A stretch of DNA of 64,000 bases from Parcubacteria group bacterium (GTDB taxonomy: Bacteria; Patescibacteriota; Minisyncoccia; Moranbacterales; GCA-2747515), in contig JBAZXC010000005.1 of assembly GCA_041660065.1 (NCBI GenBank), positions 292 through 64,291 of the forward strand, in the 5' to 3' direction. This document shows positions 9,343 to 60,313 of this stretch, piece by piece. A model generated the notes under the pieces. It was not told where the DNA came from. It saw nothing but the letters and a program-made list of their open reading frames with translations, and made no database searches. The position numbers were made by a program, and so were the translations under genes. Each line of letters opens with the position of its first letter. Position 1 is the stretch's first letter.

Positions 9343-9390
9343 TTTTTTAGGATATTTATTATTCAAATAATCCATTTATTGTAGCGTATT

Positions 9391-10533
9391 ATGAAAGCAA
9401 CATGTACATACGAAAACCTTAAAAGCGCTCTACATGCAACAGAGTTTGCTACGAGCAAGAGTGCCACATTATCCATATTAAATAACATCCTCATTGAAAC
9501 GGATGGTGCACAGTTGTGTTTCTCGGCGACAAATTTGGAAATTGGGATCATCAAAAGAATTCAAGCAAAAATTGATGCTCCGGGAAAAATTGTTGTTTCC
9601 GCCGGTTTGCTGGGGAGTTTTTTGACAGCGTTGCGTGGTACGGATCATATCACCATGAGTGTTGATGGGCAGATCTTGCTGTTGCAGAGCGGTGCGCACA
9701 AAGCGCGTATCAATGGGTATAATGTGGATGAATTTCCCATTATTCCACAAAGCAGTGCACAAAACATGGTAGAATTTTCTCTGATATATCTCAAAGAATG
9801 CATTGCAAAAGTTTTGCATTTTACATCAAAAAGTGAAACACGCATTGAACTGACAGGTGTGTTTATGTCTTTTGGTTCTGATGAGGTATGTAGTGTAGCG
9901 ACTGACAGTTTTCGTTTGGGAGAAGTCAAGATTCCGGTCAGTGAATTGGCAGTAAACATAAAAGAATATCATACTGTTACAGAAAACAATAAAAACATCA
10001 TCCTTCCACAACAGCTTTGTGCATATATCAATAAGCTTTCTGATGATCATGATATTGTACAATGCAACATTGAAGAAAATCATTTATTCTTTGCATGTGG
10101 TGATCTTTCCATTACTGCACGGTTGATTGATGGTTCTTATCCTGATTATAAACAAATTATTCCCAAAGATGCGTTAACACATGTCGTAATTAAAAAGGAT
10201 GCTCTCATGGAGGCGATGAAAATCACAACTGTTTTTACAGGGCGAGAAAGTGGTGAGATCCATTTTGACATTGATGGACAAATACTTAAAATTACGACAC
10301 GACAGCAGGACGTTGGGGAAAATACAACAGAGCTCCCTGTACTTACTGAGGGAGAGCCACAAAATATCGTGCTTAATCCACGATTTGTCATTGATGGTAT
10401 TGGACGCATTGATGAAGAGGATGTGCGTATTTCAATCAACGGTAATACGTCACCGGTGATGTTTCGTGGATATAAAAACGGAGAAGTAAGTGAACGATAT
10501 ACATATATCGTCATGCCTGTAAAAAGTGCGTAA
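9391..10533 (+). CDS. dnaN: DNA polymerase III beta subunit (sliding clamp)
   Basis: 380 aa immediately after dnaA, with three-domain beta-clamp length and organisation. Confidence 0.9.
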   Translation: MKATCTYENLKSALHATEFATSKSATLSILNNILIETDGAQLCFSATNLEIGIIKRIQAKIDAPGKIVVSAGLLGSFLTALRGTDHITMSVDGQILLLQSGAHKARINGYNVDEFPIIPQSSAQNMVEFSLIYLKECIAKVLHFTSKSETRIELTGVFMSFGSDEVCSVATDSFRLGEVKIPVSELAVNIKEYHTVTENNKNIILPQQLCAYINKLSDDHDIVQCNIEENHLFFACGDLSITARLIDGSYPDYKQIIPKDALTHVVIKKDALMEAMKITTVFTGRESGEIHFDIDGQILKITTRQQDVGENTTELPVLTEGEPQNIVLNPRFVIDGIGRIDEEDVRISINGNTSPVMFRGYKNGEVSERYTYIVMPVKSA

Positions 10534-13601: not shown

Positions 13602-14906
13602 CTATTTTTCCAAAAAATCCAGATCTTTCTCGGTGATGTTTAATTGGTCAAGGATCCATATGTGTCGCTGATTTGTCGGATCGTATTTACCAACCAAAAA
13701 ACGCGCTTGCTCTGGATCATCATTTTTAATCAGTGTATGGATGCCGATATTTCCTTCTCTGTAGGCAATATCCTTTGTAAAACAGGTGCCTGGAGTAGAG
13801 CATGTTGTGCCACGAAATGTTCGTACGCACAGATTCCATGCGAGAGATTCGGATTTTTTGGCATCCTTTCCATTGGCTATATAATAATTTTTCAAAATAT
13901 CAAAAACTGCTCTAAAATCTCGTTTTTTCCCGTCCAATCCTTTTGCAAGAGCGGCGGTAAAATGTCCGCCAAATCCCGCATAATCCTCTTCTCCCATAAT
14001 TTGTCCTTCTTGATACGTTGCAATACCCTCCTCGCCTTTTGTGTAACGATCAAGACCAAGTCCCAACAAATGGATTTTGGTTCGATCACCAGCAGCACGT
14101 CTTTGGGCATGTATAAAGATCTCATGCGCGATCAAGCCTTGTAATTTTAGTCCGGAAACAGTGCGCTTTTGGGGTATTTTGATTTTTTTATCATCCTGAG
14201 AGACAGAAATTGCTTTTACATGATCATCAATTGCAACGTGCCATCCACTGATATTTTGTGACAATAAGGCATTTTCAAATGCTTCCTGGATGTTCTCGGC
14301 AGTATATTGCTCCTGAGAGGAAATAAAGCGAATGGGCTCAACCTTTTCATGTGGTGGAATTGTTGTTTCTGTTTCTGTATCACATAGATCCAGGATTTTT
14401 TGTGCAGAATCTTTCTGTTCATCCGTGCTTTTTTCAGAAGAGATTGTATCGCACATTTTTTTTGCGGTTTGCCACAGCGTATAATTGTGAATGTTTTGTT
14501 CTGGAACGCCGTAGACAAAAGATGAGTAATGATCAAATTTTTTATCATCACCGTCTAAGGTTGCGCGCATCATGCGTACTTCCGCGATTTTTTCATTGAT
14601 CTTCCATCGATACATTTGCCGTACAACGTCATTTTTTTCCTCATGCAGAATATCCCTTTTGAGTTCCACGAGTTCTTTTTCGCGATAGTCAAGCTCATTG
14701 GGATTGATCTTTGGATAGTCGAGATGCGGATTTTCAATTTCTCCACGAAGGAAAAGGTTTTTTTGATCCTCTCTCTTTTGTGGATCGTCATCAAAATATG
14801 TGTACGGCTGAAAACCGCCAACAAATTCAAGGCGGTCATACCATTTTTCGTCCACATATATTCCTCCTTGTTTTTCCGGGTAAAAAGTGCTTTCGGGTGA
14901 TGACAT
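13602..14906 (-). CDS. DUF1704/MATCAP-like putative metallopeptidase (HExxxH)
   Basis: 434 aa with 'AHEIFIH' (HExxxH) and downstream 'YQEGQ' resembling the QEGLA motif of the DUF1704 family. Last gene of the ATP-grasp operon. Confidence 0.45.
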   Translation of the reverse strand: MSSPESTFYPEKQGGIYVDEKWYDRLEFVGGFQPYTYFDDDPQKREDQKNLFLRGEIENPHLDYPKINPNELDYREKELVELKRDILHEEKNDVVRQMYRWKINEKIAEVRMMRATLDGDDKKFDHYSSFVYGVPEQNIHNYTLWQTAKKMCDTISSEKSTDEQKDSAQKILDLCDTETETTIPPHEKVEPIRFISSQEQYTAENIQEAFENALLSQNISGWHVAIDDHVKAISVSQDDKKIKIPQKRTVSGLKLQGLIAHEIFIHAQRRAAGDRTKIHLLGLGLDRYTKGEEGIATYQEGQIMGEEDYAGFGGHFTAALAKGLDGKKRDFRAVFDILKNYYIANGKDAKKSESLAWNLCVRTFRGTTCSTPGTCFTKDIAYREGNIGIHTLIKNDDPEQARFLVGKYDPTNQRHIWILDQLNITEKDLDFLEK

Positions 14907-14908
14907 AG

Positions 14909-16135
14909 CTATATGGTGATCACATGCATATGATCACGAATAAATGTAAAATCTTGTAAAAATTGATCTTTGTGTGCATTTTTTATTATTATAACACATG
15001 CCGTGCGATATCCGTTTTTTGCCAAACCGACTTTTTGAGAAGGAATGGCTTTTATGGAGTGATAGTGATAACTTGAAAGTTTTTTTAATACCTGTAGATG
15101 CGTGATTTTCTTGAAACCCCCATCATTTTTTGGGAAAAGTTCTATAACAGCAGTATAAATACACTTTTTATTTTTTTGAAAAATCTTTTTACCTTGCGCA
15201 TTTGCAATGAGTGCAGCATTGAGATCCAATCCTTGAGACATGTGATATAGTCGTGTGCGATAGCCGCCGACGCGTGGACCGATTTCCACTACCATAGGAC
15301 CCTTTTTTGTATAAATTAATTCAACATGACCGGGTGTATTTGTAAATGCTAACGCACGCGTTGCTTTTTTTGCAACATGATTTAACTTTGCTATTTTTTT
15401 GATCGAAAGGATTGATGGGGAGATCCGTGCAAAAATATGATGATCTTCAATGTCGCGATCCTTTGCGACAAATAGATCAACAGGATCGCCAAAAACGGTC
15501 ACATGCCCGTTTTTTTGCGCAAATGTTTGAACGGAATGCATGGATCCGCGCAAAAACTCTTCCATGAGGATGCGCGGTTTTTGTGTGCGATGCTCTTTGT
15601 TATAAATTGATGTAATGGTCTTTTTTATGAAATTGTAACTTGCAACCAGGTGATCATTTGACAGCACTTTTGTGACGAGAAGACTTTTTTGCAGATTTGC
15701 CGGTTTGATCATGAGAGGAAATCCAATTTTTTTTGCAAAACGTTTTACATCATTGATGTTATTGATGATTTTATATTTTGGGGTCATTGTTGGATCATAT
15801 GCGGTGAGTGCTTTGCGCATAAGGATCTTATCAATTGCCATTTTTGCGCTCGTGATTGTAATTGTGGGAATACCCAAGAAGTTACCGAGCCAGGATCGTG
15901 CAATCACATATCTTTCATAAAATGTTATGATTGCCACCGGTTGTGCGGAAAAATTTATAGTGCGCAGGGTATGAAGAAACTGATTTTTTGATCGTATGTC
16001 AACAAGAAAAATATTTTGGTACAGTGACATTTTCTCACGCTCCTTTTCGGTCGTGACGCAAATAATATAAGGGATTGATCTTGTAGAAAGATATTCCATA
16101 AAATCGTGAGAAGCAATTCCCAAAATAATGATCAT
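14909..16135 (-). CDS. ATP-grasp domain ligase
   Basis: 408 aa with 'PLMIKPANLQ', 'MEEFLRGSMHSVQ' and 'VELIYTKKGPMVVEIGPRVGG', typical of carboxylate-amine ATP-grasp ligases. Confidence 0.65.
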   Translation of the reverse strand: MIIILGIASHDFMEYLSTRSIPYIICVTTEKEREKMSLYQNIFLVDIRSKNQFLHTLRTINFSAQPVAIITFYERYVIARSWLGNFLGIPTITITSAKMAIDKILMRKALTAYDPTMTPKYKIINNINDVKRFAKKIGFPLMIKPANLQKSLLVTKVLSNDHLVASYNFIKKTITSIYNKEHRTQKPRILMEEFLRGSMHSVQTFAQKNGHVTVFGDPVDLFVAKDRDIEDHHIFARISPSILSIKKIAKLNHVAKKATRALAFTNTPGHVELIYTKKGPMVVEIGPRVGGYRTRLYHMSQGLDLNAALIANAQGKKIFQKNKKCIYTAVIELFPKNDGGFKKITHLQVLKKLSSYHYHSIKAIPSQKVGLAKNGYRTACVIIIKNAHKDQFLQDFTFIRDHMHVITI

Positions 16136-16173
16136 ATATAAAAAAATAATTAATTAAAAACCTCTCTGATTTT

Positions 16174-17223
16174 TCAGATTGACGGTTTCTTAAGGATTCT
16201 ATTGTAAAGGGCAATATATTGTGTGGCCATAAGAGAACGATCAAAATATTTCTCGGCAAATTTGCGACAGGCATCTCTTTCAAAGCGATCAATATTTTTT
16301 GTGGCCGCGAGCAAATCAGCAGGATCATTTGAAAAACAACCGATTTTTTCCATCTCAAAATACATTTTTTTCGGTAAGGCATTGATGAATGAACCGATGA
16401 CTGGTGTGCCACACGCCAATGCTTCCATTGCAACCAGAGGAAAAACAGAAAGTGGTGTGCGAATAGGGCACAAAAGCGCCTCAGCATTTTTTACATATGC
16501 AAACACATCTTTGCGAGAAGCTTCTCCTTTATAAATGATATTTTTATCAAGATGCGGTTTGATATTTTTATCAAAATAGTTTTGTCGCTCCAAAGAGTTA
16601 CCGATTCTTCCAAAAATGAGCAGTTTTTTGTCACTTTTTTTTGCGAGGTGAATGGCTGTATCAAATCCCTTGTGTTTATTTATGCGACCAAGCGTCATCA
16701 GATATGAGCCATTTTTTGAGGAATATTTAACGGTATTGATCGGAATGCCATTGGAAATAATGTCCGCATACCCAGTCAGTGTATTCATTCTGCCTTTGGA
16801 AAGCGCTACAGGATACGCGCCACTGCGCTTTAGTTGGTAACTGTCCCTTTTTTGTATTGGATTGTGTAATGTTATGACACAAGGTGTGTGTGATAATTTT
16901 GCAACTGATGCTGCGTATCTCTGATTGTGGAGGTGAATAATATCGAAGTCATTTTGATATTGTAAAACCATGCATTGGCTGATGATGATCAAATTCCTTC
17001 TCTCCTTATCCGTTTGTTGTGAAAAGTCCTTCATGTTCCACAAGCTTTTCGGTAATGTGTGAATGTGTTTTGCTTTTGTTTTCCAATCTCCGGGTGCAAA
17101 AAGAGTTACATCGACTCCTTTTTCCAAAAGAGCATCTGTTAAATTTTTTACGACGACTTCCGGTCCGCCAGTGGCACCAAAGGGAGGTGCAACCATTGCA
17201 ATTTTTAGCACAGATTTTTTCAT
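16174..17223 (-). CDS. GT4-family (GT-B fold) glycosyltransferase
   Basis: 349 aa with a C-terminal 'EALACGTPVIGS' (E-x7-E type motif) and GT-B organisation. Confidence 0.7.
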   Translation of the reverse strand: MKKSVLKIAMVAPPFGATGGPEVVVKNLTDALLEKGVDVTLFAPGDWKTKAKHIHTLPKSLWNMKDFSQQTDKERRNLIIISQCMVLQYQNDFDIIHLHNQRYAASVAKLSHTPCVITLHNPIQKRDSYQLKRSGAYPVALSKGRMNTLTGYADIISNGIPINTVKYSSKNGSYLMTLGRINKHKGFDTAIHLAKKSDKKLLIFGRIGNSLERQNYFDKNIKPHLDKNIIYKGEASRKDVFAYVKNAEALLCPIRTPLSVFPLVAMEALACGTPVIGSFINALPKKMYFEMEKIGCFSNDPADLLAATKNIDRFERDACRKFAEKYFDRSLMATQYIALYNRILKKPSI

Positions 17224-18183
17224 TTAAACAATCGTTTTAATAAATTCTTGAAAGTGTTTTTCTTTTGTCTTTTCATCTCCAACGAGATGTAGCAGATCAA
17301 ATCCCGGCGTAGTATTCATTTCGACAAGAAGCGGTTTTCCTGTATTTGTAAAGATAAAATCTAAAGAATAATTGGCTTCAGGATAAAGGGACAATTTTTT
17401 GACGATCTTTTTGACGATCTTTTGAATAGACGGCGGAATATTTTTGCGTGGAACAAAAACGGCTGAGGCGCCCTGATGAAAGTTGGTAAAAAGGGAACCT
17501 CTTTTGGCGATCCTGGAGAGGGCATAGACTAATTTGTGATTGATAAATATTAACCTCAGATCTGCCACCTCATCTTTTTTTGAAAAGTGGGGAATGCCTT
17601 TCTCACTCTTGATGAATTCTTGGATTAATGCTGGAAAAACAATTTTATTTTTTGGAATTTTATTTTTTTCATCAATGATTATACCAAAACCACCAGAGCC
17701 ATATAATGGTTTTATAACGACTTTTGAGGAGGAAATTTTTGCAAGTGCTTCCGTCATTTCTTTTTTATTTGTCGCCAAGAATGATCGTGGCATAAATTCG
17801 CCAAAGATCAAGTATTGGGAAAGCTTGTTGTCCAATAATGTTCTAAAAAGAGGGTGATTGAAAATCTTTGTTTTTTGAGAAAGAAGCATTTTAAAATCAA
17901 AGAGCGCATAATCATATTTTCCGGAAATTTTGTCAAAGACAAGATCCGGTGTGATTGGTGTTTTTATTTTGATCCATTTTTTATTGCGAAATGCCCATGA
18001 TTTTTTAAAGGCGTTGGTTTTTCCATCATACCAATCAATACTTGCTCGGTACATTTCTACGCCATTTAACAAGCCCCTCTCATGCCAATCTTCAAAAGAT
18101 TCTCTTGTGGTATCGCTTGCAATTGGTATTTTTTTATGCCAATCATTACTGGTGTAAATGACCATCATTTTTTTGTTTGCCAT
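17224..18183 (-). CDS. ATP-grasp ligase (RimK/TTL/YheCD-like)
   Basis: 319 aa with 'VVIKPLYGSGGFGI' and 'LVEMNTTPGF', characteristic of RimK/tubulin-tyrosine-ligase-like ATP-grasp enzymes. Confidence 0.6.
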   Translation of the reverse strand: MANKKMMVIYTSNDWHKKIPIASDTTRESFEDWHERGLLNGVEMYRASIDWYDGKTNAFKKSWAFRNKKWIKIKTPITPDLVFDKISGKYDYALFDFKMLLSQKTKIFNHPLFRTLLDNKLSQYLIFGEFMPRSFLATNKKEMTEALAKISSSKVVIKPLYGSGGFGIIIDEKNKIPKNKIVFPALIQEFIKSEKGIPHFSKKDEVADLRLIFINHKLVYALSRIAKRGSLFTNFHQGASAVFVPRKNIPPSIQKIVKKIVKKLSLYPEANYSLDFIFTNTGKPLLVEMNTTPGFDLLHLVGDEKTKEKHFQEFIKTIV

Positions 18184-18189
18184 AATGTT

Positions 18190-19599
18190 TTATTTGCTTA
18201 CATCAATTAAAAATTTTCCGAGATTTCGTTTTCCGATGATCATATCATATGTGAGATTTTCACGATCGATGATGTTCATACTAACAGTCATGCGTCTTTT
18301 GTCCAAAGTAATTTCTGCTTTTACTACAGGTCGGATCGATGCACCACTGGAAGAAAAAACAACCGCAATATCTGTGATGTGAGGAATATTCTTTTTATAT
18401 TTTCGCATGAAATCGTCTTTGATGACCTGCTCATTTTGAGGAACAAGGTCGTATCCTGCAAGATCAATTTTCGAAAAAGCATCAATAGTTGAACCAAAGC
18501 CAAGTTTGCGCGCAAGTTCTGTATCTATGGATGTAGAATAGGCTCCGGTATCAATTTTTGCTTTCGTTGTGATTTTTGCATCATTTGTGCCGATAATTTC
18601 CACATTTTCTACTGAGCCGATCACGCTTTTTCCGGAAACGCTCTCAAGCTCTTCCTCGATTTCACCGCCAAAGAGATTTTTGCCCACAGCAATACCGCGA
18701 GCGATAGAATTGATCTTGAGGCCTTCTACGCGCTCAAGGCGACGCTTGAGTCCTGCGAGGTTTGCAACTTGAATGGAGAGTCCCGGGCGTGCGTTGAGTT
18801 CCAGGATCACGGGACCATTATCGCGATCAATTGCAATGTCAGCACCGAGATAACCGAGTCCGGACGCAATTTGTGATTTGATCGCTAAATGGAGAATTTC
18901 ATCCCAATGGGGGATTTTGATGCCGGAAAGTAGGAGGCGTGTATTTGGCACATACTCCACAATGCGAGATTTACCTTGTACTGCTGTTGTTGTTACACCG
19001 CGTGCCATATCGATCCCAACGCCAATGCCACCTTGCTGGAGATTTGCTTTGCCGTCGGATTCTTCGGTTGGAAGGCGCAGCATCGCCATAACAGGCACTT
19101 TATTGTAAACAATGACGCGGATATCAGGGATGCCCTTATATGCATATGGACGGAATTCTTTTGATAGTTTGAGACGTTCTTCAAAAAAAGCAATATCCGG
19201 CGTACCGGAAAGAGAAAACTCACCATCCAAGATATGTCCAATATGCATTTTGAGATCGGCAATTGAGACGGGTCTGCCATTTGACCGTACCCATGTATCC
19301 AATGATCCTTTTTTTCTGCCATAGATCACAATGATACCTTCACCGCCCAGGCCACGATTTGGTTTGAGTACAAAACTTGATGGTAAGATGCTCCAATCAA
19401 AATTTTCCAGTGTACGGCGTGACGAAATCTGCGCGATCAATCGTGGCACGGGAACCCCGGCTTTTCGGAGTAATTTTTTTGATGTGATTTTTTCATCAGC
19501 AAGTCGTTTGGCTTTTTTGCGATTATTTGGACGAATGTATGTAAGGTTGCGCGCATTCATCCCAAGGATCTTCTTGCTTGCGGAAAACAAAGTAAACAT
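18190..19599 (-). CDS. RimK-like ATP-grasp ligase fused to C-terminal retropepsin-like (PF05618-type) domain
   Basis: N-terminal 'ILGMNARNLTYI' as in alpha-L-glutamate-ligase-related proteins. ATP-grasp core 'VILELNARPGL'. The C-terminal roughly 140 aa carry 'AKIDTGAYSTSID' (a D-T-G-A aspartic protease signature). Confidence 0.6.
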   Translation of the reverse strand: MFTLFSASKKILGMNARNLTYIRPNNRKKAKRLADEKITSKKLLRKAGVPVPRLIAQISSRRTLENFDWSILPSSFVLKPNRGLGGEGIIVIYGRKKGSLDTWVRSNGRPVSIADLKMHIGHILDGEFSLSGTPDIAFFEERLKLSKEFRPYAYKGIPDIRVIVYNKVPVMAMLRLPTEESDGKANLQQGGIGVGIDMARGVTTTAVQGKSRIVEYVPNTRLLLSGIKIPHWDEILHLAIKSQIASGLGYLGADIAIDRDNGPVILELNARPGLSIQVANLAGLKRRLERVEGLKINSIARGIAVGKNLFGGEIEEELESVSGKSVIGSVENVEIIGTNDAKITTKAKIDTGAYSTSIDTELARKLGFGSTIDAFSKIDLAGYDLVPQNEQVIKDDFMRKYKKNIPHITDIAVVFSSSGASIRPVVKAEITLDKRRMTVSMNIIDRENLTYDMIIGKRNLGKFLIDVSK

Positions 19600-19610
19600 G
19601 AGCAGAGATA

Positions 19611-20303
19611 TTATTGAATTTTTTTGATCACATCGCGAAAGCGGAGATATTCACTCAAGCGCAATCCAGTCCATTTTCCGATGAAGAGATTAATTGGGAT
19701 AATGAGGAGCACGACCCATGTGTGGATGAGTGTAAAACGGATGATCGTTTGTCCGATGATTGTTGTCGGAGAAAGGATCGTATATCCGACAAGAGCAATA
19801 AAAAGAGTTTCAACGGCAAGGAGGAGTGCAGTGCGAGAACCTTTTTCAATTTGCACGGTTACAAATTTTTCCACAAGCATAATGATGATAAGAATGGGAA
19901 AAACCGGCGCAGAAGAGAACCCTGTGCGACCTGTGCTACCACCAAATGCTAAAATTGCCAAAACGGCGAAAGAGACAACGGTGAGCGTGATGGCAACGCG
20001 AGGCAGGTAGAGAAGACGAAATTTTTTCAAAACATACCGCATCATCATGCCGACAAAAATGACGGTCACATAAACCATGATGGCGTATTTGATATCCGAC
20101 CAACGCTGTTGACCGATAAAGACGAATGCGAGTGTGATAATGGATGGCGTATAAATACCAAACGCTTGGATGCCAACAATTTGACGTAGTACAACAACGA
20201 CAGTAACGATCACAGGAAAAAGCAAGAGAAGTGTGATCGTTGAGATCTCAACATGCTGTGCCAATAAAAAATGGATCAGAGGATTATAATATGGTTCATA
20301 CAT
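19611..20303 (-). CDS. 7-TM membrane protein (partner of the RimK-like ligase)
   Basis: Seven hydrophobic helices. The start was moved to internal ATG 20303 (MYEPYYNPL), because the longest ORF would overlap ruvC by 89 nt. Confidence 0.5.
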   Translation of the reverse strand: MYEPYYNPLIHFLLAQHVEISTITLLLLFPVIVTVVVVLRQIVGIQAFGIYTPSIITLAFVFIGQQRWSDIKYAIMVYVTVIFVGMMMRYVLKKFRLLYLPRVAITLTVVSFAVLAILAFGGSTGRTGFSSAPVFPILIIIMLVEKFVTVQIEKGSRTALLLAVETLFIALVGYTILSPTTIIGQTIIRFTLIHTWVVLLIIPINLFIGKWTGLRLSEYLRFRDVIKKIQ

Positions 20304-20808
20304 AAGTGTGGAAATTAATTGTTTGTAAATATTTGCGTGAGTTACTGTGGCAAAGAGCAACGGCAAGGGCATCGGCCGTATCATCCGGTGTGGGAACTTT
20401 TTTTAATTTTAACACGTTTCTGATCATTTCTTGCATTTGGCTTTTATTTGCGCGGCCGTATCCCGTCAATGATTGTTTGATTTGTAGCGGCGTGTATTCA
20501 CCAATCACGAGTTTATGAGAAAAACATGTGTGTAGGATCACGCCACGCGCTTGCGCAACAGTGATGATCGTTTTTGCATTTTTGAAATAAAACAATGTTT
20601 CGAGTCCAGCCTCATGTGGTTTGTATGTATTGATCAGATCAGTGATTCCTGAAACGATTTCCGCAAGTCGTGTAGCATCGGACAGTGTCGAAAGTGTTTC
20701 AATGTGTCCATAGGCAACAACCTTGTTGGAAAGTTTTTGCGGATCATGATCGATCACGCCCCATCCTACAATTGCTGTGCCGGGATCTATGCCTAGTATA
20801 CGCACCAT
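20296..20808 (-). CDS. ruvC: Holliday junction resolvase RuvC
   Basis: 'ILGIDPGTAIVGWGVI' N-terminus and RuvC length. ATG at 20808 chosen; the TTG at 20829 is the track start. Confidence 0.85.
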   Translation of the reverse strand: MVRILGIDPGTAIVGWGVIDHDPQKLSNKVVAYGHIETLSTLSDATRLAEIVSGITDLINTYKPHEAGLETLFYFKNAKTIITVAQARGVILHTCFSHKLVIGEYTPLQIKQSLTGYGRANKSQMQEMIRNVLKLKKVPTPDDTADALAVALCHSNSRKYLQTINFHTYV

Positions 20809-21622: not shown

Positions 21623-23134
21623 TTATTGTACGTCATGTTTTGGGGTACCTGTGCAGAAATTATATACAGATGCGTCAGATGGCACAATGGAGGGAATATC
21701 GCATCGATTTGTATCTTGTGTGAGTGTGTATGATGGAAACAAATACTGTTGTTTGTAAAACGAGGGGACAAATTCTGCAATTTTTTTATCAACGCCAGAG
21801 AGAGTATGTGTGATCAATGCATTTATTTTTTCAAAAAGAACAACAAAAAAAGATAATTGTGAGCGCGCGAAAGAGGTGTGCATGTGAGGGTTGTAAATAG
21901 CATCGTAGGCAATGGTTTGCTCGGCAGTTTGTTGTGTGAGCAATTGTTCATTGGCGATGGCGCGCATGATAATTGCAAGAGTTTGCTGCTGTTTTGCGCG
22001 ATCTTTTGGGATGGTCCACTGCCATGTGTTGCCGATTAGCTCATAGGTAGCATTATCGGAAATAGTATCTGTTGTGTCTCCATAAGATATGTGATCGGAC
22101 ACGGATCCATCCGGTCGGCGCAATTCGATCACGCCGGTTTTGTTGGGGAGGGTAATGGCGGCATATGTATGTGTGATCATTTTTGTGGCGCCTTTTTTGA
22201 TCGTAATATGTTGACTGATTGGATGATTGACCAGCGTCTTTTTTGTTGAGCCGGTCGCGATGCTCCATCCATAAAGATCGAGAGAATCTTTTTCTGCATT
22301 GTGCAATAAAAGATACTCATTGCCCGTATCTTTGCCGGCAGGATTTGGGACAATTTTTGTAATTTTCAATTTATATTTTGGATATTTTGTGACAACAACG
22401 GTAAAATTCTGCACAATGTCCTCGCTGTCATCTTGCACGCGCACAGAGCCGTAGTATGTTCCTGCAGTTTCATATTTGTGGCGCGTTTCCCATACATAGC
22501 TTCGGTGGCCATCGCCAAAGTCCCAGCGTACTTTTAATTTTTCACCATCGATATCTGTTGCACGTATTGAAAAATCCGCGTAGACATTTGTGTAGGCAAT
22601 TTTTTGTATGACGGTTTTTGTAAGGATAGGAAGATTATTAAAGACGTTTGGCTTTTGTGGCGTGAGAAATTTGCTCCAGCGCCATGATTGGTTTGTGAGA
22701 TCAAAATTAAAAGAAAGGTTTTCTCGAGAGGATTGATATGAAGTGGTGCTGACGATTTTTTCGTTCGGTGCGATAAGGGATATTGTTTCATTGCTGTTAT
22801 TGAGTGCAAAGATGAATTGTGTGCGGAAGATCACAATGTAAGTGTGTGCTTCAATAATAGTACTGTGTGTAAATGTATAGGATCCGGTAGAAGAGGCATC
22901 ATGCAATGTCCAATTTTTGAGATCAGCAGAAATATCATTGGGGTTGTAAATCTCAATAAACTCGTTGGTTTCCTCGTCATTAAGCGGATTTGGCAATATC
23001 TCACTCAATAATAGTTGCGGATATGATTGTGTTCGCGGATCTGGCGTATTGGATGTATCCGGAGTCATTTCTGCCCAATACCAATCAGGAGCGTTATTCA
23101 GCGATAATCCCTCGTGCGCTTGTGTGTACGACAC
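21623..23134 (-). CDS. lamin-tail-domain (LTD) repeat surface protein, 3' portion of a frameshifted gene
   Basis: Contains two LTD units ('LLSEILPNPLNDEETNEFIEIYNP', 'KIVPNPAGKDTGNEYLLLHN'). Reading frame continues from ORF 23190..24146 after a 1-nt frameshift near 23225. Confidence 0.6.
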   Translation of the reverse strand: MSYTQAHEGLSLNNAPDWYWAEMTPDTSNTPDPRTQSYPQLLLSEILPNPLNDEETNEFIEIYNPNDISADLKNWTLHDASSTGSYTFTHSTIIEAHTYIVIFRTQFIFALNNSNETISLIAPNEKIVSTTSYQSSRENLSFNFDLTNQSWRWSKFLTPQKPNVFNNLPILTKTVIQKIAYTNVYADFSIRATDIDGEKLKVRWDFGDGHRSYVWETRHKYETAGTYYGSVRVQDDSEDIVQNFTVVVTKYPKYKLKITKIVPNPAGKDTGNEYLLLHNAEKDSLDLYGWSIATGSTKKTLVNHPISQHITIKKGATKMITHTYAAITLPNKTGVIELRRPDGSVSDHISYGDTTDTISDNATYELIGNTWQWTIPKDRAKQQQTLAIIMRAIANEQLLTQQTAEQTIAYDAIYNPHMHTSFARSQLSFFVVLFEKINALITHTLSGVDKKIAEFVPSFYKQQYLFPSYTLTQDTNRCDIPSIVPSDASVYNFCTGTPKHDVQ

Positions 23135-23189
23135 AGTAGAGATTGTTTTACCGTTTGGTGCGATGAGTGAGACTGTTTCGTCACCACTG

Positions 23190-24146
23190 TTATTGAGCGC
23201 AAATCCGAATGTGCTGCGATATACGATCTAAATATGCATGTGCATCGATTGTCGCATCACCAAAAAGATATGTTCCAGTTGCCGTTGCATCTTTGATCAT
23301 CCAATTTTCTAGTGATGCAGATGTATCAAAAGGATTGTAGATCTCAATGAATTCATCAGTTTCTTCATTGTCGATCGGGTCAGGGAGAAGCTCGTTAAGC
23401 ATGAGCGCGGGATAATCTTTTGTGAGGGGATTTTCCATATTTTCTGCATGTGGCGTCGGAGATTCTTCATACCACTGCGAATCGTCATAATTCCACGACA
23501 ATCCCTCGTGAGATGTTGTATATGCATAGTGTGCGATGCGGATGTGGTCCGCGTTATCCACAAAGATTTCTTCGTCGCTGTTGTTGAGCACAAAAGAAAA
23601 ATCTCGTTGATTGTACAGTGTGAGATAGTCGTGTGGCGCTAGTATGATATTGCCAAATGTGAAACGCTTCGATGGACTTGCGATGCCGGTTTTATCATAG
23701 ATTTCCCAATCTTTTAAATCGACAGTGCTATCGCTGTCATTGTATAATTCGATAAATTCATTGCCTGTGTCCGATCCGGACGGGTTTGCTAAAATTTCAT
23801 TGATGCGGATAGCGTCTGCAGTCAAAGATCTTGCAGTTTTTTCTGTAAGAATTTTTTGTGGTTCATTGGGTGTTGGCGGTGTTGGCGTTTCTGTGGGATC
23901 GAGGATTGTATCAAGCGGTGATGAAGGGGCGCCTTCTTCCAATGGGATTGAGGGCAGCTGTTCAGAAGGGGACACTTCTTCTCTCTCTTCCATTGTGAGA
24001 GGAAGATCATTTTTTGGTGTTGGTGTCTCTTGAATAGGAGGAACTGAAACGGGCGGATCGGTTGATGTGGGCGTGTCAGCACATGTATAGAATGGCGGTA
24101 TGCCAATGAGCAAAACAAACAAAATGACACGAAAGACTATGCGCAT
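23190..24146 (-). CDS. secreted lamin-tail-domain repeat protein, 5' portion of a frameshifted gene
   Basis: Signal peptide (MRIVFRVILFVLLIG), a Pro/Thr-rich linker, then LTD units ('INEILANPSGSDTGNEFIELYND', 'LNELLPDPIDNEETDEFIEIYNP'). The last LTD is truncated by the frameshift. Confidence 0.6.
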   Translation of the reverse strand: MRIVFRVILFVLLIGIPPFYTCADTPTSTDPPVSVPPIQETPTPKNDLPLTMEEREEVSPSEQLPSIPLEEGAPSSPLDTILDPTETPTPPTPNEPQKILTEKTARSLTADAIRINEILANPSGSDTGNEFIELYNDSDSTVDLKDWEIYDKTGIASPSKRFTFGNIILAPHDYLTLYNQRDFSFVLNNSDEEIFVDNADHIRIAHYAYTTSHEGLSWNYDDSQWYEESPTPHAENMENPLTKDYPALMLNELLPDPIDNEETDEFIEIYNPFDTSASLENWMIKDATATGTYLFGDATIDAHAYLDRISQHIRICAQ

Positions 24147-25068: not shown

Positions 25069-26085
25069 TTAGCGTTTTAATTGGGCATAGCCATGATCGG
25101 TCACGATGCGTCCGCGCGGAGAACGTTCAAGAAAGCCTCTTTGCATGAGATATGGCTCATAAACATCCTCAATGGTTTGAACTTCCTCTGAAAGTGCATT
25201 GGCGATTGTCTGGATGCCAACGGGACCGCCGTTGAATTTGTCGATAATAAGTGTCAAAAACTCCCGATCAGTCGGCTCAAGACCATTGTCATCGATATCA
25301 AGCATCTCGAGCGCTTGTTGGGCGACATGGGCATTGATCACATCATGTTCATGCACTTCTGCCCAGTCGCGGGCACGCTTTAAGAGGCGATTGGCGATGC
25401 GCGGTGTCTGGCGTGCGGCACGCGCAAGACAGAGAGCGCCGGCATCATCGATCGCACATGTGAGAATCGATGCACTGCGTGCAATGATCCTCTCAATATC
25501 CTCTTGTTTATAGAATTCCAAGCGATGGATCACGCCAAAACGATCGCGAAGCGGTCCTGTGAGATTGCCCATGCGCGTTGTTGCACCAATGAGGGTGAAT
25601 TTTGGCAGATCGATCTGCAATGCCTGTGCACTGGGTCCTTTGCCTACGATGAGATCGAGTTTGTGATCTTCCATTGCCGGATAGAGCACCTCCTCAACTA
25701 CTTTGTTGAGGCGGTGGATCTCATCGATAAAAAGTACATCGCCATCTTGCATGTTGGTGAGAATCGATCCGAGATCGCCGACGCGTTCGATTGCCGGTCC
25801 GGATGTCGTTTTGATATTGACATTCATCTCGCGCGCAATGATGTTGGCAAGTGTCGTTTTGCCCAGCCCCGGCGGTCCGTAGAGGAGGATGTGTTCTAGC
25901 GGTTCTTTGCGCTTTTTTGCGGCGTCGAGGAAGATGCGGAGTTGTTTTTTGATCTTTTCTTGTCCGACGTATTCACTAAGTTTTTGTGGACGAAGTGTAT
26001 AATCAATGGTGAATTCACTCGGAATTGCCGGTTCTTGTGGTTGCGTGTCGCTCTCTGCGCTGTGATCATGCGTAATAAGTGTCAT
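25069..26085 (-). CDS. ruvB: Holliday junction branch migration ATPase RuvB
   Basis: '[14 protein letters not shown]', '[11 protein letters not shown]' and a RuvB C-terminal winged helix. Confidence 0.95.
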
Positions 26086-26509: not shown

Positions 26510-27313
26510 ATGAATAATTCAGGTGAAAATGGAGAAAAGATCCCGCATAATTTTGTGGAACAAAACATTCAAGAGGGTCAAATGGATATCCCGTATGTTA
26601 CACCAGAAGATCGACGTAATGCAAAGAAACAGTTGGAAAAACCGCTAGCGGTGGAAGAGGGTGAGGATGGTGAAACAAAACTGTCTGCGGAAAATGCAAA
26701 GATCACGATACAAAAAACGAACTTGGATCAGAGAGAGGCGGATGAACTTGCCGAGTTTAAACGCAAAAATGAACATGGTCTTGGCAACAGTAAGAATGAT
26801 GTAAGCGTGCGGGAATTGCCAAATGCTGAAGAATGGCAACGGTTGGATCGTTTTGTTGTGAATAATGGACAAGAGGAAAAAGATTTCACCAAGATCATGC
26901 CGGAAATGCGTCATTACAAAATATTTTTTTGTCCTTCGCTTGCACAAGACAAGCACTCCGTGGCAACGGACGAGGCAAATAAAAATATTTATGTTATGGG
27001 TAACATGACGTCACTTCTCGACATTGTGGAATTGTTGCACAAAATTGGACATGTGTGGGAAAGTAGCGGTATGGATAGTAATGTGGAAAATATGGATTCT
27101 CAGGATGCTATGCTCAAAAAAGAATATAACGCAACACACTTTACTATGAAAATGTTGAAGCCGTTTTTGGTCGGTCAAAATGGTAAAAATATCGAAAATG
27201 TCGTGTATGGCAATTACCATGAATATGTAGAAGAAATGAATGGATCTGTGCAAGATCCTCATCACAAAAATGTGCGCGACGGGCAAATCGATCGTCCGGA
27301 GCTGGAGAAGTAA
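26510..27313 (+). CDS. hypothetical acidic protein
   Basis: 267-aa ORF with good coding character and no recognisable motif. Confidence 0.5.
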   Translation: MNNSGENGEKIPHNFVEQNIQEGQMDIPYVTPEDRRNAKKQLEKPLAVEEGEDGETKLSAENAKITIQKTNLDQREADELAEFKRKNEHGLGNSKNDVSVRELPNAEEWQRLDRFVVNNGQEEKDFTKIMPEMRHYKIFFCPSLAQDKHSVATDEANKNIYVMGNMTSLLDIVELLHKIGHVWESSGMDSNVENMDSQDAMLKKEYNATHFTMKMLKPFLVGQNGKNIENVVYGNYHEYVEEMNGSVQDPHHKNVRDGQIDRPELEK

Positions 27314-27357
27314 ACAATAAAAAACTGATTACATAAGGTAATCAGTTTTTGTTTTGT

Positions 27358-30300
27358 TTACAGCGTTGTAACGCGTTTGGCTTCCTCAAGGGTTGTGGCG
27401 CCTTCAAGGACTTTGAGGAGAGCGTCTTGCTCCATGGTGAGCATGCCTTTTTCGATCGCTTTTTTCTTGAGATCTGCCATCATTGCGCCGTGAGCGATCA
27501 GTTCGCGCAAATCGTCGTCCATGATAAATACTTCCGATACGACGGTACGGCCTTTATACCCGATGCCATTACACTTTGGACATCCGCCCGGGATGAAGAT
27601 TTTTTCTGTCTGGGGGCGTGGAATTGCGACAACCGGTGAAATGCCTTCAAGTGTTTTTGTGATCATGATTTTTTCTTCTTCCGTTACCGGACGATCTTTT
27701 TTACATTCACAGAGCGTACGTACGAGACGCTGGGCGATAAAGGCATTGACGGCGGTAGTGAGGTCGTCAGTGCCAATGCCGAGGCGGATGAGGCGCTGTA
27801 CAGCACCAACGGCATCGTTGGTGTGAAGCGAAGAGATGAGGAGATGACCTGTAAGTGCGGCATTGACTGCTGTTTCCGCCGTTTCTTCATCGCGGATTTC
27901 ACCAACCAACATCACATCGGGATCTTGACGGAGGAGGGCGCGAAGTGCAGAAGCAAATGTATAGCCGGCCTTTTTATCGATCTGTGTTTGCAAAATACCA
28001 TCGAGCTGATATTCGATCGGATCTTCGATGGTGATGATCTTGATGTCAGGGTTGCTGATCTCACGCAAGACGCTGTACAGTGTTGTGGTTTTACCGGAGC
28101 CTGTCGGACCTGTGTTGAGGATGATGCCGTATGGTTTATGTGCTTGTGACATGATGCGGTCGAGATTGTAATCACGGATGCCAATTGTATGCAAGTCGAT
28201 GTTGACAGTTTCTCTGTTGAGGAGGCGCAACACAACTGTCTCGCCATAACCGCCGACGATGATCGAAACACGCACATCCACATGATTTTCCGTTGCATCT
28301 TCCTTTTCATAAAGAATGCGGAAACGACTGTCGGAAACACCTTGGCGAATTGTCGTAGGGATGTTGCTGATGACCTTGATCTTGCTGAGAAGAAGGGGGT
28401 AACTGATGATCGGCATATGGGCGATGGATTGCAATACGCCATCGACACGCATACGGATATCGACAAAATCTTCCTGCGGCTCAATGTGGATATCACTTGA
28501 TTTGAGCGTTGATCCATAGGCGAGGATCACGGGGAGAACATCATTGTCATCAGCTTTGTTGACACAGGCGTCGATGGCAGTAAAATTTTGCGCATTGGCG
28601 CCGGCAAGATTTTGGATCTCATTTTTGACAAAAATGCCATGTGCAAGAGATTGCGACATGAGGTCTTCATAAAGTTTTTCGATGAGTTCTCCTTCAGTCG
28701 TGACTCGCATAATCTCCTCGATCGTTGTTTGTCCTTTTAATGCTTTCAAAACACCATCTTGTGTCATCGTGACCAAACCGTCTTCAATTGCTGATTTCAT
28801 GATCTCAGTCTCACTTGCGAGATCAAGGATCATTTGTTCAATTGTGCTGGTCATGGTAAGAACCTCAAAAATGCCGATGCGACCCTTATAGCCTGTGTTA
28901 TGGCATTGATCACATCCGACAGCGCGATATATGGAAGTGATTTGTTTTGGGATTTCCAACTTTGCTTTTGGCGAAATGAGAGCTACCATTTTCATGAACA
29001 TCTCGATGGTCTCTTGCGCCGGCACGTATTGTTCTTTGCAGTTTTCGCACAGGGTACGCACAAGACGTTGTGCCATAAAGACATTTGTTGCAGATGGGAT
29101 GAGCGTTGGTTTGACACCGAGCTCCATGAGACGAGGGATCGTTGCAATGGCGTTATTGGTGTGTAGTGTGGAAAGCACGAGATGACCGGTGAGAGCGGCG
29201 TTCACAGCAACGTCAGCTGTTTCATCATCGCGGATCTCACCGACGAGAATGACATCAGGGTCTTGCCTCACAATTGCGCGCAATCCTCTGGCAAAAGTAT
29301 AGCCATGCTCTTTCGAAATTTGCGTCTGGGAGATGCCTTCGATCTGATACTCGATCGGATCCTCGATCGTGATGATCTTTGTCTCTGCCGTTTTGATGTG
29401 GTTGATAAGCGTATAAAGTGTTGTCGTCTTGCCGGATCCTGTTGGACCTGTTGTGAGAATCATGCCGGCATTTTTGGCGATATTTTTTTGGATATCCTCA
29501 AAGGCTTTTCCTGCGAGGCCGAGAGTATTGATGTCTACGGTAATGCTATCACTGCGCAAAAGACGAAGTACGATACCCTCAAATTCCTTACCCGGAATTG
29601 TGGATACACGGACATCAATTTGCGTCGTGCCATCAAGCTCAGAAGTAAAGTGACCATCTTGCGCCTCATCGCGGATATTGATCCGCATTTTGCTCATGAG
29701 TTTGATACGGTTGGTCAATAGTTTGTGCGTGTGATGTGGGATGGTGGTAATGTCTTGCAGTACACCATCGATGCGATAACGCATGTGCACAGATTCCTTT
29801 TGTGGTTCAAGATGAATGTCGCTTGCAAGAAGCTTGACTGCGCCGGAAAAAATAATATTGAGCACCTCGGTTGTGGGTAATTCGTCAATATTTTCTTTGA
29901 GTCGCAATAATTGTCCGAGACCTTGTTCAAATTCCTCGAGATCTTTTCCTGTAAGCGTTAGACGCATTGTGTCGATTGCGTCAATAAAATACGCATTTTT
30001 GTATTGACGCAGTAATTTTTCAAAAGAATCATGAGAGATCACAAACAGCTCCACGTCCCATCCTTTTGTGTCACGCAAATCTGCAATGAGTTGGTGAAGC
30101 TCGGGGTTTTCCGGATTAGGGCTGCCGAGTTTGAGAAATTTTCCTGATGAGTGGAACGCTGCAACCTGATATTGTTTGGCGACATCTTCTTTGATCGTGG
30201 AAACATCATCACTAGAGATTGGGGTGATGTTGAGATCGATATAAGGGAGGCCGAGTCTTTTTGCGGTGTAGGAAGCAAATTCTTCCTGACTTTTTGATTG

Positions 30301-30378
30301 GAGATGTTGCAGGGTGCGTTCGGTTTCTCTTGCGTGAAGTTTCTCGGCTTGCTCGTCAGGGTGTGTGATGATGACCAT
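27358..30378 (-). CDS. tandem-duplicated PilB/GspE-family secretion ATPase (two complete ATPase modules in one polypeptide)
   Basis: N-terminal T2SSE_N-like domain, then two full N2+CTD modules. Each has a Walker A ('LTTGPTGSGKTTT' / 'LNTGPTGSGKTTT'), Asp/His boxes, a tetracysteine zinc motif ('CENCKEQ...CDQCHNTGYKGR' / 'CECKKDR...CPKCNGIGYKGR') and a C-terminal 'EEIMRVT'-type tail. Confidence 0.85.
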   Translation of the reverse strand: MVIITHPDEQAEKLHARETERTLQHLQSKSQEEFASYTAKRLGLPYIDLNITPISSDDVSTIKEDVAKQYQVAAFHSSGKFLKLGSPNPENPELHQLIADLRDTKGWDVELFVISHDSFEKLLRQYKNAYFIDAIDTMRLTLTGKDLEEFEQGLGQLLRLKENIDELPTTEVLNIIFSGAVKLLASDIHLEPQKESVHMRYRIDGVLQDITTIPHHTHKLLTNRIKLMSKMRINIRDEAQDGHFTSELDGTTQIDVRVSTIPGKEFEGIVLRLLRSDSITVDINTLGLAGKAFEDIQKNIAKNAGMILTTGPTGSGKTTTLYTLINHIKTAETKIITIEDPIEYQIEGISQTQISKEHGYTFARGLRAIVRQDPDVILVGEIRDDETADVAVNAALTGHLVLSTLHTNNAIATIPRLMELGVKPTLIPSATNVFMAQRLVRTLCENCKEQYVPAQETIEMFMKMVALISPKAKLEIPKQITSIYRAVGCDQCHNTGYKGRIGIFEVLTMTSTIEQMILDLASETEIMKSAIEDGLVTMTQDGVLKALKGQTTIEEIMRVTTEGELIEKLYEDLMSQSLAHGIFVKNEIQNLAGANAQNFTAIDACVNKADDNDVLPVILAYGSTLKSSDIHIEPQEDFVDIRMRVDGVLQSIAHMPIISYPLLLSKIKVISNIPTTIRQGVSDSRFRILYEKEDATENHVDVRVSIIVGGYGETVVLRLLNRETVNIDLHTIGIRDYNLDRIMSQAHKPYGIILNTGPTGSGKTTTLYSVLREISNPDIKIITIEDPIEYQLDGILQTQIDKKAGYTFASALRALLRQDPDVMLVGEIRDEETAETAVNAALTGHLLISSLHTNDAVGAVQRLIRLGIGTDDLTTAVNAFIAQRLVRTLCECKKDRPVTEEEKIMITKTLEGISPVVAIPRPQTEKIFIPGGCPKCNGIGYKGRTVVSEVFIMDDDLRELIAHGAMMADLKKKAIEKGMLTMEQDALLKVLEGATTLEEAKRVTTL

Positions 30379-30523: not shown

Positions 30524-31678
30524 TTAATTAAGAAGGGAGATATATGGCATAAGGAGATCACACATATCTGTATGGATTTCTTCTGTTGAATGTGCTGCAA
30601 GGGGTAGCTCGTAGTTATACTCTTCGAGAACCGTGATACCATCGAGCGTTTCTTCCAATGCAAGGTTTGCATTTTTTGTGTCGATCAACGCACAAAATGT
30701 GTGATCGTCATTTTCATACACGAGAAGAAATATTTTGCCTGATGGGTAATTTTGTTTCATTTTTTTCAAGATCGCGTGCAATTGGTGTTTTTCTGCTTTT
30801 GTCTGTATACGATCTTGATGTGTGATCGTTGAGATGACGATTTGTTTATGACAGGGCAGTGTGGTGAGATTTTTCATCGTGCGTCCCCACAATTGTAAGA
30901 GAGAGAAAGTCTGATTGCGATAGAGGTTGTGAATGATAATCTGCTGATCTGCGCCAAGCTCGATCAGGTGACTTGCTAGCGTCAATGCATGCGGTGTGGT
31001 GTTGTGATTTTGAAAACTGTTTGTTTCACTGATGATGCCGGCAAGGAGGCATTGCGCACAGGTTTTGGGAATTTTTGTGCTGGGTAATTTCTCGAGGACA
31101 TCACCGACAACTTCTGATACAGAGGATGCGACAGCATTGACGATATTCACTTGGCCATATTGTTCATTGGCACTTTTGTTGTCGATATTGATGATTGGAA
31201 TTTCATAAAAAATATCCGGCATATCATCATAGATCTTTCCCATGGATTCTTTTTCAATAGCACCAATGGCGATGATGATGTCATAGGGAAACTTGCCAGG
31301 GAGAAATGAAAAATCGCGAGAATCAACCATGCCATGCTCTGGTGTGATGCGAATATTGAGCGTGTCCTCACCCGGTTCTGTTTGTACATTGAGGATTTTG
31401 TTGTATTTTGTATTAAAAGAAAGGATGAGATCACGAGAGCCGGAGATAGAATGAACGATCGAAGAGTTTTTTGCACGGGGAAGAAAGTTGAGTGACGCAG
31501 TTTCTTCAAATGGATCGGAATAGGCAATTGTTGTGGTGATACTTTTTACCTCACAAAAATGCGTCAAAGCCAGGGCGCAACAAAACAAGTCATGCTTTGG
31601 GCTTTCCGGCAAAAGAATGAGGACGTGAGAACTGTTATTTAACAGTTTATCAAATTGTTTGACAACATCTTTGGACAT
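30524..31678 (-). CDS. DHH/DHHA1-family protein with degenerate catalytic motifs (NrnA-like, possibly inactive)
   Basis: Length and architecture resemble NrnA. Motif III reads 'INIDNKSAN' instead of IDHH, and the N-terminal DxD region reads 'PKHDL'. Confidence 0.5.
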   Translation of the reverse strand: MSKDVVKQFDKLLNNSSHVLILLPESPKHDLFCCALALTHFCEVKSITTTIAYSDPFEETASLNFLPRAKNSSIVHSISGSRDLILSFNTKYNKILNVQTEPGEDTLNIRITPEHGMVDSRDFSFLPGKFPYDIIIAIGAIEKESMGKIYDDMPDIFYEIPIINIDNKSANEQYGQVNIVNAVASSVSEVVGDVLEKLPSTKIPKTCAQCLLAGIISETNSFQNHNTTPHALTLASHLIELGADQQIIIHNLYRNQTFSLLQLWGRTMKNLTTLPCHKQIVISTITHQDRIQTKAEKHQLHAILKKMKQNYPSGKIFLLVYENDDHTFCALIDTKNANLALEETLDGITVLEEYNYELPLAAHSTEEIHTDMCDLLMPYISLLN

Positions 31679-60251: not shown

Positions 60252-60313
60252 ACAGGTCTTTCCTTGATTTTGTAAATTTGTTGTATAATGAGAGCACAGA
60301 GAATAATTTAGGC

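Follow-up and report, generated by a model that had tools for sequence, protein, structure and literature searches.

A conserved family of putative PilB/GspE-type motors with tandem ATPase modules at a ruvB locus of Patescibacteria

Architecture of the double-module ATPase

The 64,000-nucleotide stretch of contig JBAZXC010000005.1 analyzed here (the window), from a Parcubacteria group bacterium, carries on its minus strand, at 27358-30378, an open reading frame (ORF) with an ATG start that encodes a protein of 1006 aa plus stop. The identical NCBI protein (P0001) is named 'MAG: GspE/PulE family protein [Parcubacteria group bacterium]', MAG standing for metagenome-assembled genome. A preliminary description of the window had proposed that this ORF, for which it gave no strand, encodes one T2SSE_N-like domain followed by two ATPase modules, and this layout is confirmed. 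A single MshEN (T2SSE_N) domain was recognized by Pfam at residues 42-126 of the 1006-aa protein, together with two T2SSE stretches. The modules were placed at about residues 172-559 and 614-1003 by hmmsearch with the module profile, and at about 171-561 and 613-1005 by BLASTP of one half against the other (48% identity over 395 aa, E = 2e-119), a similarity that is beyond chance and far from that of a collapsed recent repeat. The elements of the gene are the following:

30001..30255, minus strand: N1 domain (MshEN/T2SSE_N fold), residues 42-126, one copy per chain (Pfam PF05157, E = 5.7e-8)
28696..29868, minus strand: motor module 1 (N2D plus C-terminal domain, CTD), residues 171-561, from BLASTP and the PilB alignment
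29425..29448, minus strand: Walker A of module 1, GPTGSGKT, residues 311-318 (MILTTGPTGSGKTTTLYTLIN, starting at residue 311)
28543..28695, minus strand: inter-module segment, residues 562-612
27361..28542, minus strand: motor module 2 (N2D plus CTD), residues 613-1006, from BLASTP and residue mapping
28087..28110, minus strand: Walker A of module 2, GPTGSGKT, residues 757-764 (IILNTGPTGSGKTTTLYSVLR, starting at residue 757)

The Walker A strings quoted in the preliminary description were all found in the ORF, as were the C-terminal tails, TTIEEIMRVTT and TTLEEAKRVTT. Between the modules lies a helix predicted with low confidence (residues 563-577), which bears a motif of the family with invariant Y570, L573 and Q576 and is followed by two short helices. 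Because the latter mirror the helices at residues 145-163 ahead of module 1, the duplicated unit is therefore of about 445 aa (residues 116-561 versus 562-1006). Separate production of module 2 from the conserved Met574 as a start was considered and rejected, as no Shine-Dalgarno sequence lies at the proper distance and the nearby residues are conserved at the protein level.

The best solved relatives of the protein are Geobacter PilB (5TSG/6OLJ, E = 1e-108) and GspE, and none of the solved structures among the matches carries two modules. Both modules align end to end with PilB (5TSG/5TSH/6OLJ) and GspE, with full-length identities of about 42% to PilB versus about 23-26% to PilT, and Foldseek comparison of the AlphaFold2 modules with PilB chains gave TM scores of 0.9-0.94 (0.93 for module 1 versus 5TSG). 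The N1 domain aligns with the N-terminal region of Geobacter metallireducens PilB and represents, once per chain, the N1-type putative docking domain (PF05157) for PilM/GspL. The NCBIfam models for PilB (TIGR02538; 845 bits, cut-off 676) and GspE (TIGR02533; 875 bits, cut-off 630) are both exceeded, yet these equivalog scores can not separate PilB, GspE and ComGA, because each sums two stretches. Retraction ATPases of the PilT/PilU type have about 350 aa, an extended pore loop 3 and neither N1 domain nor zinc motif. This assignment was rejected, given the zinc motif in both modules and a TIGR01420 match to the core only. Judged from its sequence, the protein is a single-chain tandem duplication of a predicted assembly-type motor of the PilB/GspE clade, differing from PilB and GspE in that its single N1 domain is followed by two motor modules (by three in one relative).

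In order to assess both modules residue by residue, the functional residues of G. metallireducens (Gm) PilB (McCallum et al. 2017, PMC5424180) were mapped onto them via HMMER alignment to 5TSG/6OLJ, and invariance was counted over 116 close relatives and, separately, over distant representatives of the main family. As in PilB and GspE, an N-terminal N1/MshEN-type domain is present, and each module displays a Walker A, an atypical Walker B with catalytic Glu, an Asp box, a His box, two Arg fingers, an inter-chain Arg and a zinc motif. The Walker A lysines (K317 and K763, followed by T318 and T764) are invariant in 116/116 relatives, and the atypical Walker B, with Gly for the acidic residue and then the catalytic Glu (G380-E381 and G826-E827), is invariant in both modules. 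The same 116/116 holds for the Asp boxes (E339/E343 in module 1, E785/E789 in module 2, of which E343 and E789 are the Mg-coordinating residues), the His boxes (H399/H406 and H845/H852), the N2D Arg fingers (Gm R271 and R286; here R257/R272 and R703/R718) and the inter-chain Arg of the PilB/GspE clade (Gm R455; R441 and R887). The acidic residues of pore loop 1 (Gm D398/E400) correspond to D384/E386 and D830/E832 and are conserved in both modules. Retention of the catalytic residues by both halves had been claimed before and is borne out throughout the 116 relatives; the alignment to PilB structures that had been proposed as a check finds the Arg fingers and the catalytic Glu intact in both. 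The distant representatives of the main family and a three-module protein keep all tested residues in their modules, with one conservative exception, an inter-chain Arg to Lys replacement in module 2 of P0134.

A tetracysteine motif had also been ascribed to each module. Four cysteines are indeed present in both, in module 1 as the classical CxxC...CxxC (C444, C447, C489, C492) but in module 2 as CxC...CxxC (C890, C892, C933, C936), with a knuckle one residue shorter that is fixed in 116/116 close relatives. Module 2 thus appears to retain the four-Cys putative zinc motif of the PilB/GspE clade, as a CxC variant. At the position of Gm-R257, module 1 has His (H243) in 98 of the 116 relatives, and module 2 has Arg (R685) in all of them. 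The module 1 His and the module 2 CxC knuckle set this Moranbacteria subclade apart from PilB and GspE, and the deeper family members have neither. Module 2 also evolves somewhat faster, with a mean M2-M2 distance of 0.90 versus 0.77 for M1-M1. The two halves had been expected to be free to diverge in function; these three differences agree with that expectation, but they are small and the first two are confined to the subclade.

Nonsynonymous divergence (dN) from the closest relative (88% identity) amounts to 0.064 in module 1 and 0.055 in module 2, about 3-fold below the values of the N1 domain (0.15) and the linker (0.20). Synonymous divergence (dS) is saturated (above 1.7 or undefined), which leaves dN and rough upper bounds on their ratio, omega, as the usable measures; these bounds put omega at no more than a few percent in either module. 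Both modules are under strong purifying selection, and from their residues both look catalytically competent.

As judged by eye, the N1 domain (RLGLPYIDLNITP, RLGLPYIDLN) does not match the cyclic di-GMP motif of MshE, which Wang et al. 2016 are said to give as the 24-residue RLGxx(L/V/I)(L/V/I)xxG(L/V/I)(L/V/I)xxxxLxxxLxxQ. A protein with a GGDEF diguanylate cyclase domain is encoded elsewhere in the window (60278-61168, plus strand), in what is a reduced Patescibacteria genome.

Distribution and origin of the duplicated module

Among 5.8 billion proteins, at least 116 clusters (90% identity) of 1003-1050 aa match the protein over its full length, with identities as low as 52%. Their members derive from NCBI, JGI, ENA and Logan assemblies, and the named ones are Moranbacteria or Parcubacteria. 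A further 13 double-module clusters belonging to the family, 39-49% identical, came from an exhaustive search, made without a profile, of 1.84 billion representatives at 50% identity. Scanning of the GTDB species genomes with peptides specific to the double-module family, from which only orthologous loci came back, yielded ten Moraniibacteriota orthologues, in MAGs including the closed chromosome CP175956.1. The databases call these proteins just 'GspE/PulE family protein'. The double-module PilB is a conserved family of Patescibacteria and not a one-off.

The chance that the ORF is an artefact, either a collapsed tandem repeat, as the preliminary description had allowed for, or a pair of adjacent genes merged through sequencing error, is negligible, given modules that are 48% identical only, the recurrence of the unbroken ORF and its conserved linker motif across more than 100 independent assemblies as well as the closed chromosome, and the strong purifying selection on both modules.

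Three orthologues (L010, L013 and L016; DYDB01000005.1, CAZHQB010000030.1 and CAYRUU010000007.1), 77-88% identical, occur in MAGs titled 'Micavibrio sp.', an alphaproteobacterium. These titles are probably mislabels, as gene content and protein family point to Moraniibacteriota. A further orthologue (L019:3229-6039) has an internal gap in module 2, with profile positions of about 78-177 missing from an ORF segment of 940 aa; the gap may stem from a true deletion, from decay into a pseudogene or from faulty assembly.

No description of a fused, tandem or double PilB or GspE ATPase was found in full-text literature searches, and the architecture is mentioned neither in a 2024 review of PilB nor in the 2019 survey of the type IV filament superfamily nor in the census of archaeal type IV pili (T4P), so that the family is apparently undescribed. 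What is known is the fold, the chemistry and the probable role of PilB; new are the covalent multi-module architecture, its recurrence and its conserved non-pilus locus.

The single-module PilBs closest to the family (P0145, P0139 and P0163, 559-565 aa) occur at the same locus, in the order DHH / pilB / ruvB, or pilB / ruvB / yebC / ruvC beside dnaA-dnaN; an adjacent single-module cluster, P0158, is named Parcubacteria. Since sister lineages carry a single-module pilB at this very locus, the fusion originated there, through tandem duplication within a pilB gene that was already apart from pilus genes. For the main family a single origin is supported by the shared linker motif and the nearest-neighbour pattern of its modules; the evidence from neighbour joining is modest, the M2-M2 distance (0.90) being only slightly below the M1-M2 distances (0.94-0.97).

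Two double-module proteins of the same genomic neighbourhood follow a different pattern. The loci of P0128 (PolA / TsaE / double) and P0131 (PolX / double / ruvB) encode proteins whose own two modules are mutually closest, at distances of 0.30 and 0.62, and whose inter-module linkers are without the family motif. On these grounds P0128 is certainly, and P0131 probably, the product of an independent duplication, so that the duplication of the module arose at least twice and probably three times. In P0128 (L021:3226-6213, GCA_021733405.1) the modules are about 75% identical, pointing to a recent event. Before module 1, residues 120-181 of the same protein align with the C-terminal portion of the profile for the module and may be the remnant of a further partial copy.

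A three-module protein, P0019 (L004:10001-14383, JGI 3300022698 Ga0248662_100121), is known from a single contig; it has 1460 aa, three intact modules and a DHH / pilB locus. In its middle module, the N2D is of type 2 (67% identity to that of the third module) and the CTD of type 1 (64% identity to that of the first). This is the pattern expected from unequal crossing-over that duplicated CTD1-linker-N2D2, and because the copies have diverged since, an artefact is not the explanation. Only forms with two and three modules occur among the top-scoring proteins of the 1.84 billion representatives, and none with four or more was found there.

An unrelated double-module T2SSE protein was also encountered, P0138 (L006:10001-13144, GCA_964384625.1), of 1047 aa and with a T2SSF fragment fused at its N-terminus. 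Its first module is degenerate (Walker A K to T, Asp-box E to Q), and the contig, which encodes sulfatases, an ECF sigma factor and BatA, has a non-Patescibacteria-like gene content.

The ruvB/DHH locus

The gene lies in the order tsaE / DHH-like / double pilB / ruvB / bPH / LTD-PKD protein / yebC / ruvC (LTD, lamin-tail domain), which recurs, wholly or largely, at the loci of relatives with 54-78% identity and at that of the three-module protein. In this it differs from the genes of PilB and GspE, which lie beside pilC/pilD or gspF. The immediate neighbours of the gene are:

30524..31678, minus strand: NrnA-like DHH-family protein, 384 aa, upstream and co-directional (same adjacency in L001, L002, L004, L007 and L009)
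27320..27350, strand not assigned: terminator-like hairpin with a 13-bp stem and T runs on both sides, directly past the stop codon (pattern match only)
26510-27313, plus strand: acidic ORF, 267 aa, without family match in Pfam, between pilB and ruvB
25069..26085, minus strand: ruvB, conserved downstream neighbour of pilB over Patescibacteria lineages (window Pfam scan and synteny)

These agree with the flanking genes first described, a hypothetical protein (the 267-aa ORF) and a degenerate DHH protein. In none of the related loci examined does the former occur at this place; it may have been inserted in this lineage alone. The latter, across loci, is a protein of 375-386 aa encoded co-directionally and immediately upstream of pilB, and it is missing at three loci (L005, L008 and L021). 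Its DHH motif is degenerate here (NIDNKSAN) and intact in a single-module lineage (NIDHHASN; L009:85-1233). Motif I is altered too in the NrnA-like protein of double-module Moranbacteria, yet the protein is well conserved. Conservation of a degenerate NrnA-like protein suggests a non-catalytic role.

The window is a housekeeping region at or near the chromosomal replication origin: dnaA and dnaN lie at 7915-10533 on the plus strand, relatives show yidC, R3H (Jag-like) and rnpA-type neighbours, and the GC skew is positive throughout the 64 kb. Besides polA, ruvA, ruvB, ruvC, yebC, recQ, holA and metG, the window holds a cluster of cell-envelope glycosylation and ATP-grasp genes. At 13602-20384 (minus strand) it encodes a 7TM_transglut protein, three to four ATP-grasp proteins (ATPgrasp_ST / RimK-like), a MATCAP-like peptidase and a glycosyltransferase. 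In one relative (L002), the 7TM and ATP-grasp genes of the cluster are conserved downstream of ruvC. At 21623-24146 (minus strand), two LTD proteins, with or without PKD, follow ruvB and a bPH_2 protein, and the order ruvB / bPH_2 / LTD-PKD is common to L002 and L004.

In agreement with the preliminary description, pilC, pilM, pilT and pilin genes are absent from the window by Pfam, tblastn, hmmsearch and signal-peptide patterns. The Pfam scan of its 49 non-shadow ORFs of at least 150 aa returned no T2SSF/PilC, PilM, PilN/O, PilT or prepilin peptidase, and shorter ORFs were checked by pattern only and not by profile. No second T2SSE was found in the window by tblastn and hmmsearch, and no pilin by strict and relaxed class-III signal-peptide patterns. 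The same is true of the related loci, none of the 21 having pilC, pilM, pilT or pilin within 10 kb. Genes of type IVa pili (T4aP) are usually dispersed over several loci (Denise 2019, in the type IV filament survey), and in the literature T4P components are widespread in bacteria of the Candidate Phyla Radiation (CPR), Moranbacteria bins included. It is plausible that the pilus partners are encoded elsewhere in the genome.

Assembly of the motor and alternative readings

Motors of the PilB/GspE type are thought to be homohexamers that break symmetry (C2 or C3) in a rotary ATP cycle, in which the N2D of one subunit and the CTD of the next make up the canonical inter-subunit 'packing unit'. It is debated which of the six subunits fire at the same time and in what way they address the platform protein. 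The reading that we favour, holding it to be somewhat better than an even chance, is that of a functional assembly-type ATPase of type IV filaments, belonging to the PilB/GspE clade, with its motor duplicated behind one N1 domain and three chains forming a ring of six modules. The ring would be a trimer of covalent dimers (and a dimer of trimers in the three-module variant) in which modules 1 and 2 alternate, each N2D packing on the adjacent CTD as in homohexameric PilB. ATP turnover round the ring would drive a platform protein of the PilC type, its gene lying elsewhere in the genome, and this in turn would polymerise pilins for attachment and/or DNA uptake. The three N1 domains of each ring would dock to PilM/GspL-like partners, and their number would match a three-fold platform protein that is internally duplicated (pseudo-six-fold).

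A single ring is favoured because module numbers of two and three both divide six, because conservation of the pore and interface residues is the same for the two modules, and because a fresh, near-identical duplicate such as P0128 must work without a new interface. A further argument is the platform protein, whose chain is internally duplicated and which, in the case of PulF, is reported to be a trimer (PMC10790770; also Denise 2019). The presumed partner PilC/GspF, as a trimeric tandem duplicate of pseudo-six-fold symmetry, would share the symmetry of a trimer of double-module ATPases, although it is a membrane protein and not an ATPase, and none is encoded near the Parcubacteria pilB gene. 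In its ring bookkeeping the series resembles the sliding clamps, an analogy only, of unrelated fold and function. The same pseudo-six-fold ring is built there from three chains of two domains (PCNA) or two chains of three (bacterial beta clamp), mirroring the two- and three-module variants of PilB.

Several observations weigh against the favoured reading. The AlphaFold2 monomer models give no confident inter-module geometry or intra-chain packing unit: the full chain, from a 109-sequence alignment, reached a mean pLDDT of 80.8 and a pTM of 0.47, and CTD1-linker-N2D2 a pTM of 0.57 with a large spread among five models. Because no PilC, PilM or pilin gene lies nearby, the putative pilus role is drawn from homology only. 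The tandem P-loop modules of KaiC, EccC of the type VII secretion system and type II AAA+ proteins form rings of their own, stacked on one another, and in the GspE-Hcp1 fusion (4KSR) the C-terminal partner is reportedly a ring lying under the ATPase, an arrangement that would suit stacking in the double-module PilB as well. A trimer of dimers is nevertheless reasonable and the most likely assembly.

Like the double-module PilB, KaiC, EccC and type II AAA+ proteins have two or three homologous ATPase modules in tandem with active sites retained, although they belong to separate families. By analogy with them, six chains could form a stacked double ring, with a module-1 ring above a module-2 ring, in which the membrane-proximal ring engages the platform and the distal one regulates, pre-loads or engages another substrate. 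We regard this as possible but rather unlikely. It has a precedent in these related tandem P-loop ATPases; a second module could sit beneath the ring face on which, presumably, the C-termini of GspE lie in 4KSR; six N1 domains per assembly would be kept; confident packing of CTD1 on N2D2 within a chain is missing from the AlphaFold2 models; and module 2 evolves somewhat faster (0.90 versus 0.77). However, residues of the pore loop and the inter-chain contacts, thought to touch PilC or the neighbouring subunits, are equally conserved in the two modules, whereas those of a distal ring out of touch with the platform should relax. Fresh identical modules, as approached by P0128 at about 75% identity, would presumably be unable to sort into homotypic rings, whereas side-by-side positions in a single ring would call for no new specificity, and the three-module form would need three stacked rings.

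In Thermus thermophilus PilF it is the N-terminal GSPII/MshEN domains that are repeated, ahead of one ATPase module. The Parcubacteria protein resembles PilF (6F8L, 5OIU; about 900 aa), which is also among its matches of solved structure, in being a PilB-clade ATPase enlarged by internal domain repeats, and differs from it in repeating the ATPase module and keeping one N1 domain.

A more far-reaching reading, to which we give little credence, is that of a distinct PilB-derived machine with alternating specialised sites, serving DNA uptake or processing or another non-pilus task, instead of a fused version of the usual pilus ATPase. It would bring together the covalent 3x2 and 2x3 pseudo-hexamers, repeatedly evolved from a homohexameric PilB, the ruvB/DHH locus, at which pilus genes are never neighbours, and the DNA-scavenging life of episymbionts.

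The protein could likewise be an orphan motor, that is, a PilB paralogue with a non-pilus or DNA role, for instance in uptake or processing, while the PilB of a separate cluster makes pili; this we consider improbable. Single- and double-module forms alike lie next to ruvB and the DHH-like gene, across lineages as distant as about 40% identity, and many genes of the region serve replication and repair (dnaA, dnaN, polA, ruvA/B/C, recQ and holA). According to Meheust 2019, PilB and other pilus components of CPR bacteria are encoded together in many genomes, which would make the gene at the ruvB locus an additional copy. Yet reduced Patescibacteria genomes can keep synteny without a functional link, the DHH neighbour is missing at L005, L008 and L021 and is catalytically degenerate here, and the terminator-like hairpin and an opposite-strand ORF part pilB from ruvB in this window. 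Moreover, T4aP genes are normally dispersed, and the N1 domain, zinc motif and pore residues typical of ATPases that assemble pili or type II secretion systems have been retained.

It is very improbable that one module is a regulatory pseudo-ATPase that binds nucleotide without turnover and alternates with the active one as in F1 alpha3-beta3. The candidates would be module 1, with His for Gm-R257, or module 2, with its short zinc knuckle, these being two fixed module-specific differences of the Moranbacteria subclade, and the unrelated P0138 does have a degenerate first module. All binding and hydrolysis residues are, however, invariant in both modules of the family, both differences are missing from its deeper members, and Gm-R257 is not among the two universally conserved Arg fingers.

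For annotation, double-module proteins have the consequence of inflating equivalog scores. For the mechanism of these motors, they offer natural covalent dimers and trimers of intact modules, a counterpart of the engineered linked ClpX hexamers, in which single ring positions can be mutated independently; the 3x2 versus 2x3 series constrains the symmetries tolerated by the mechanism. A ring made as a trimer of dimers would mirror the trimeric duplicated platform and support a three-fold co-evolution of motor and platform. In Patescibacteria, a conserved origin-proximal pilB locus apart from the pilus clusters may bear on attachment or DNA scavenging, both of which are central traits of these ultrasmall symbionts.

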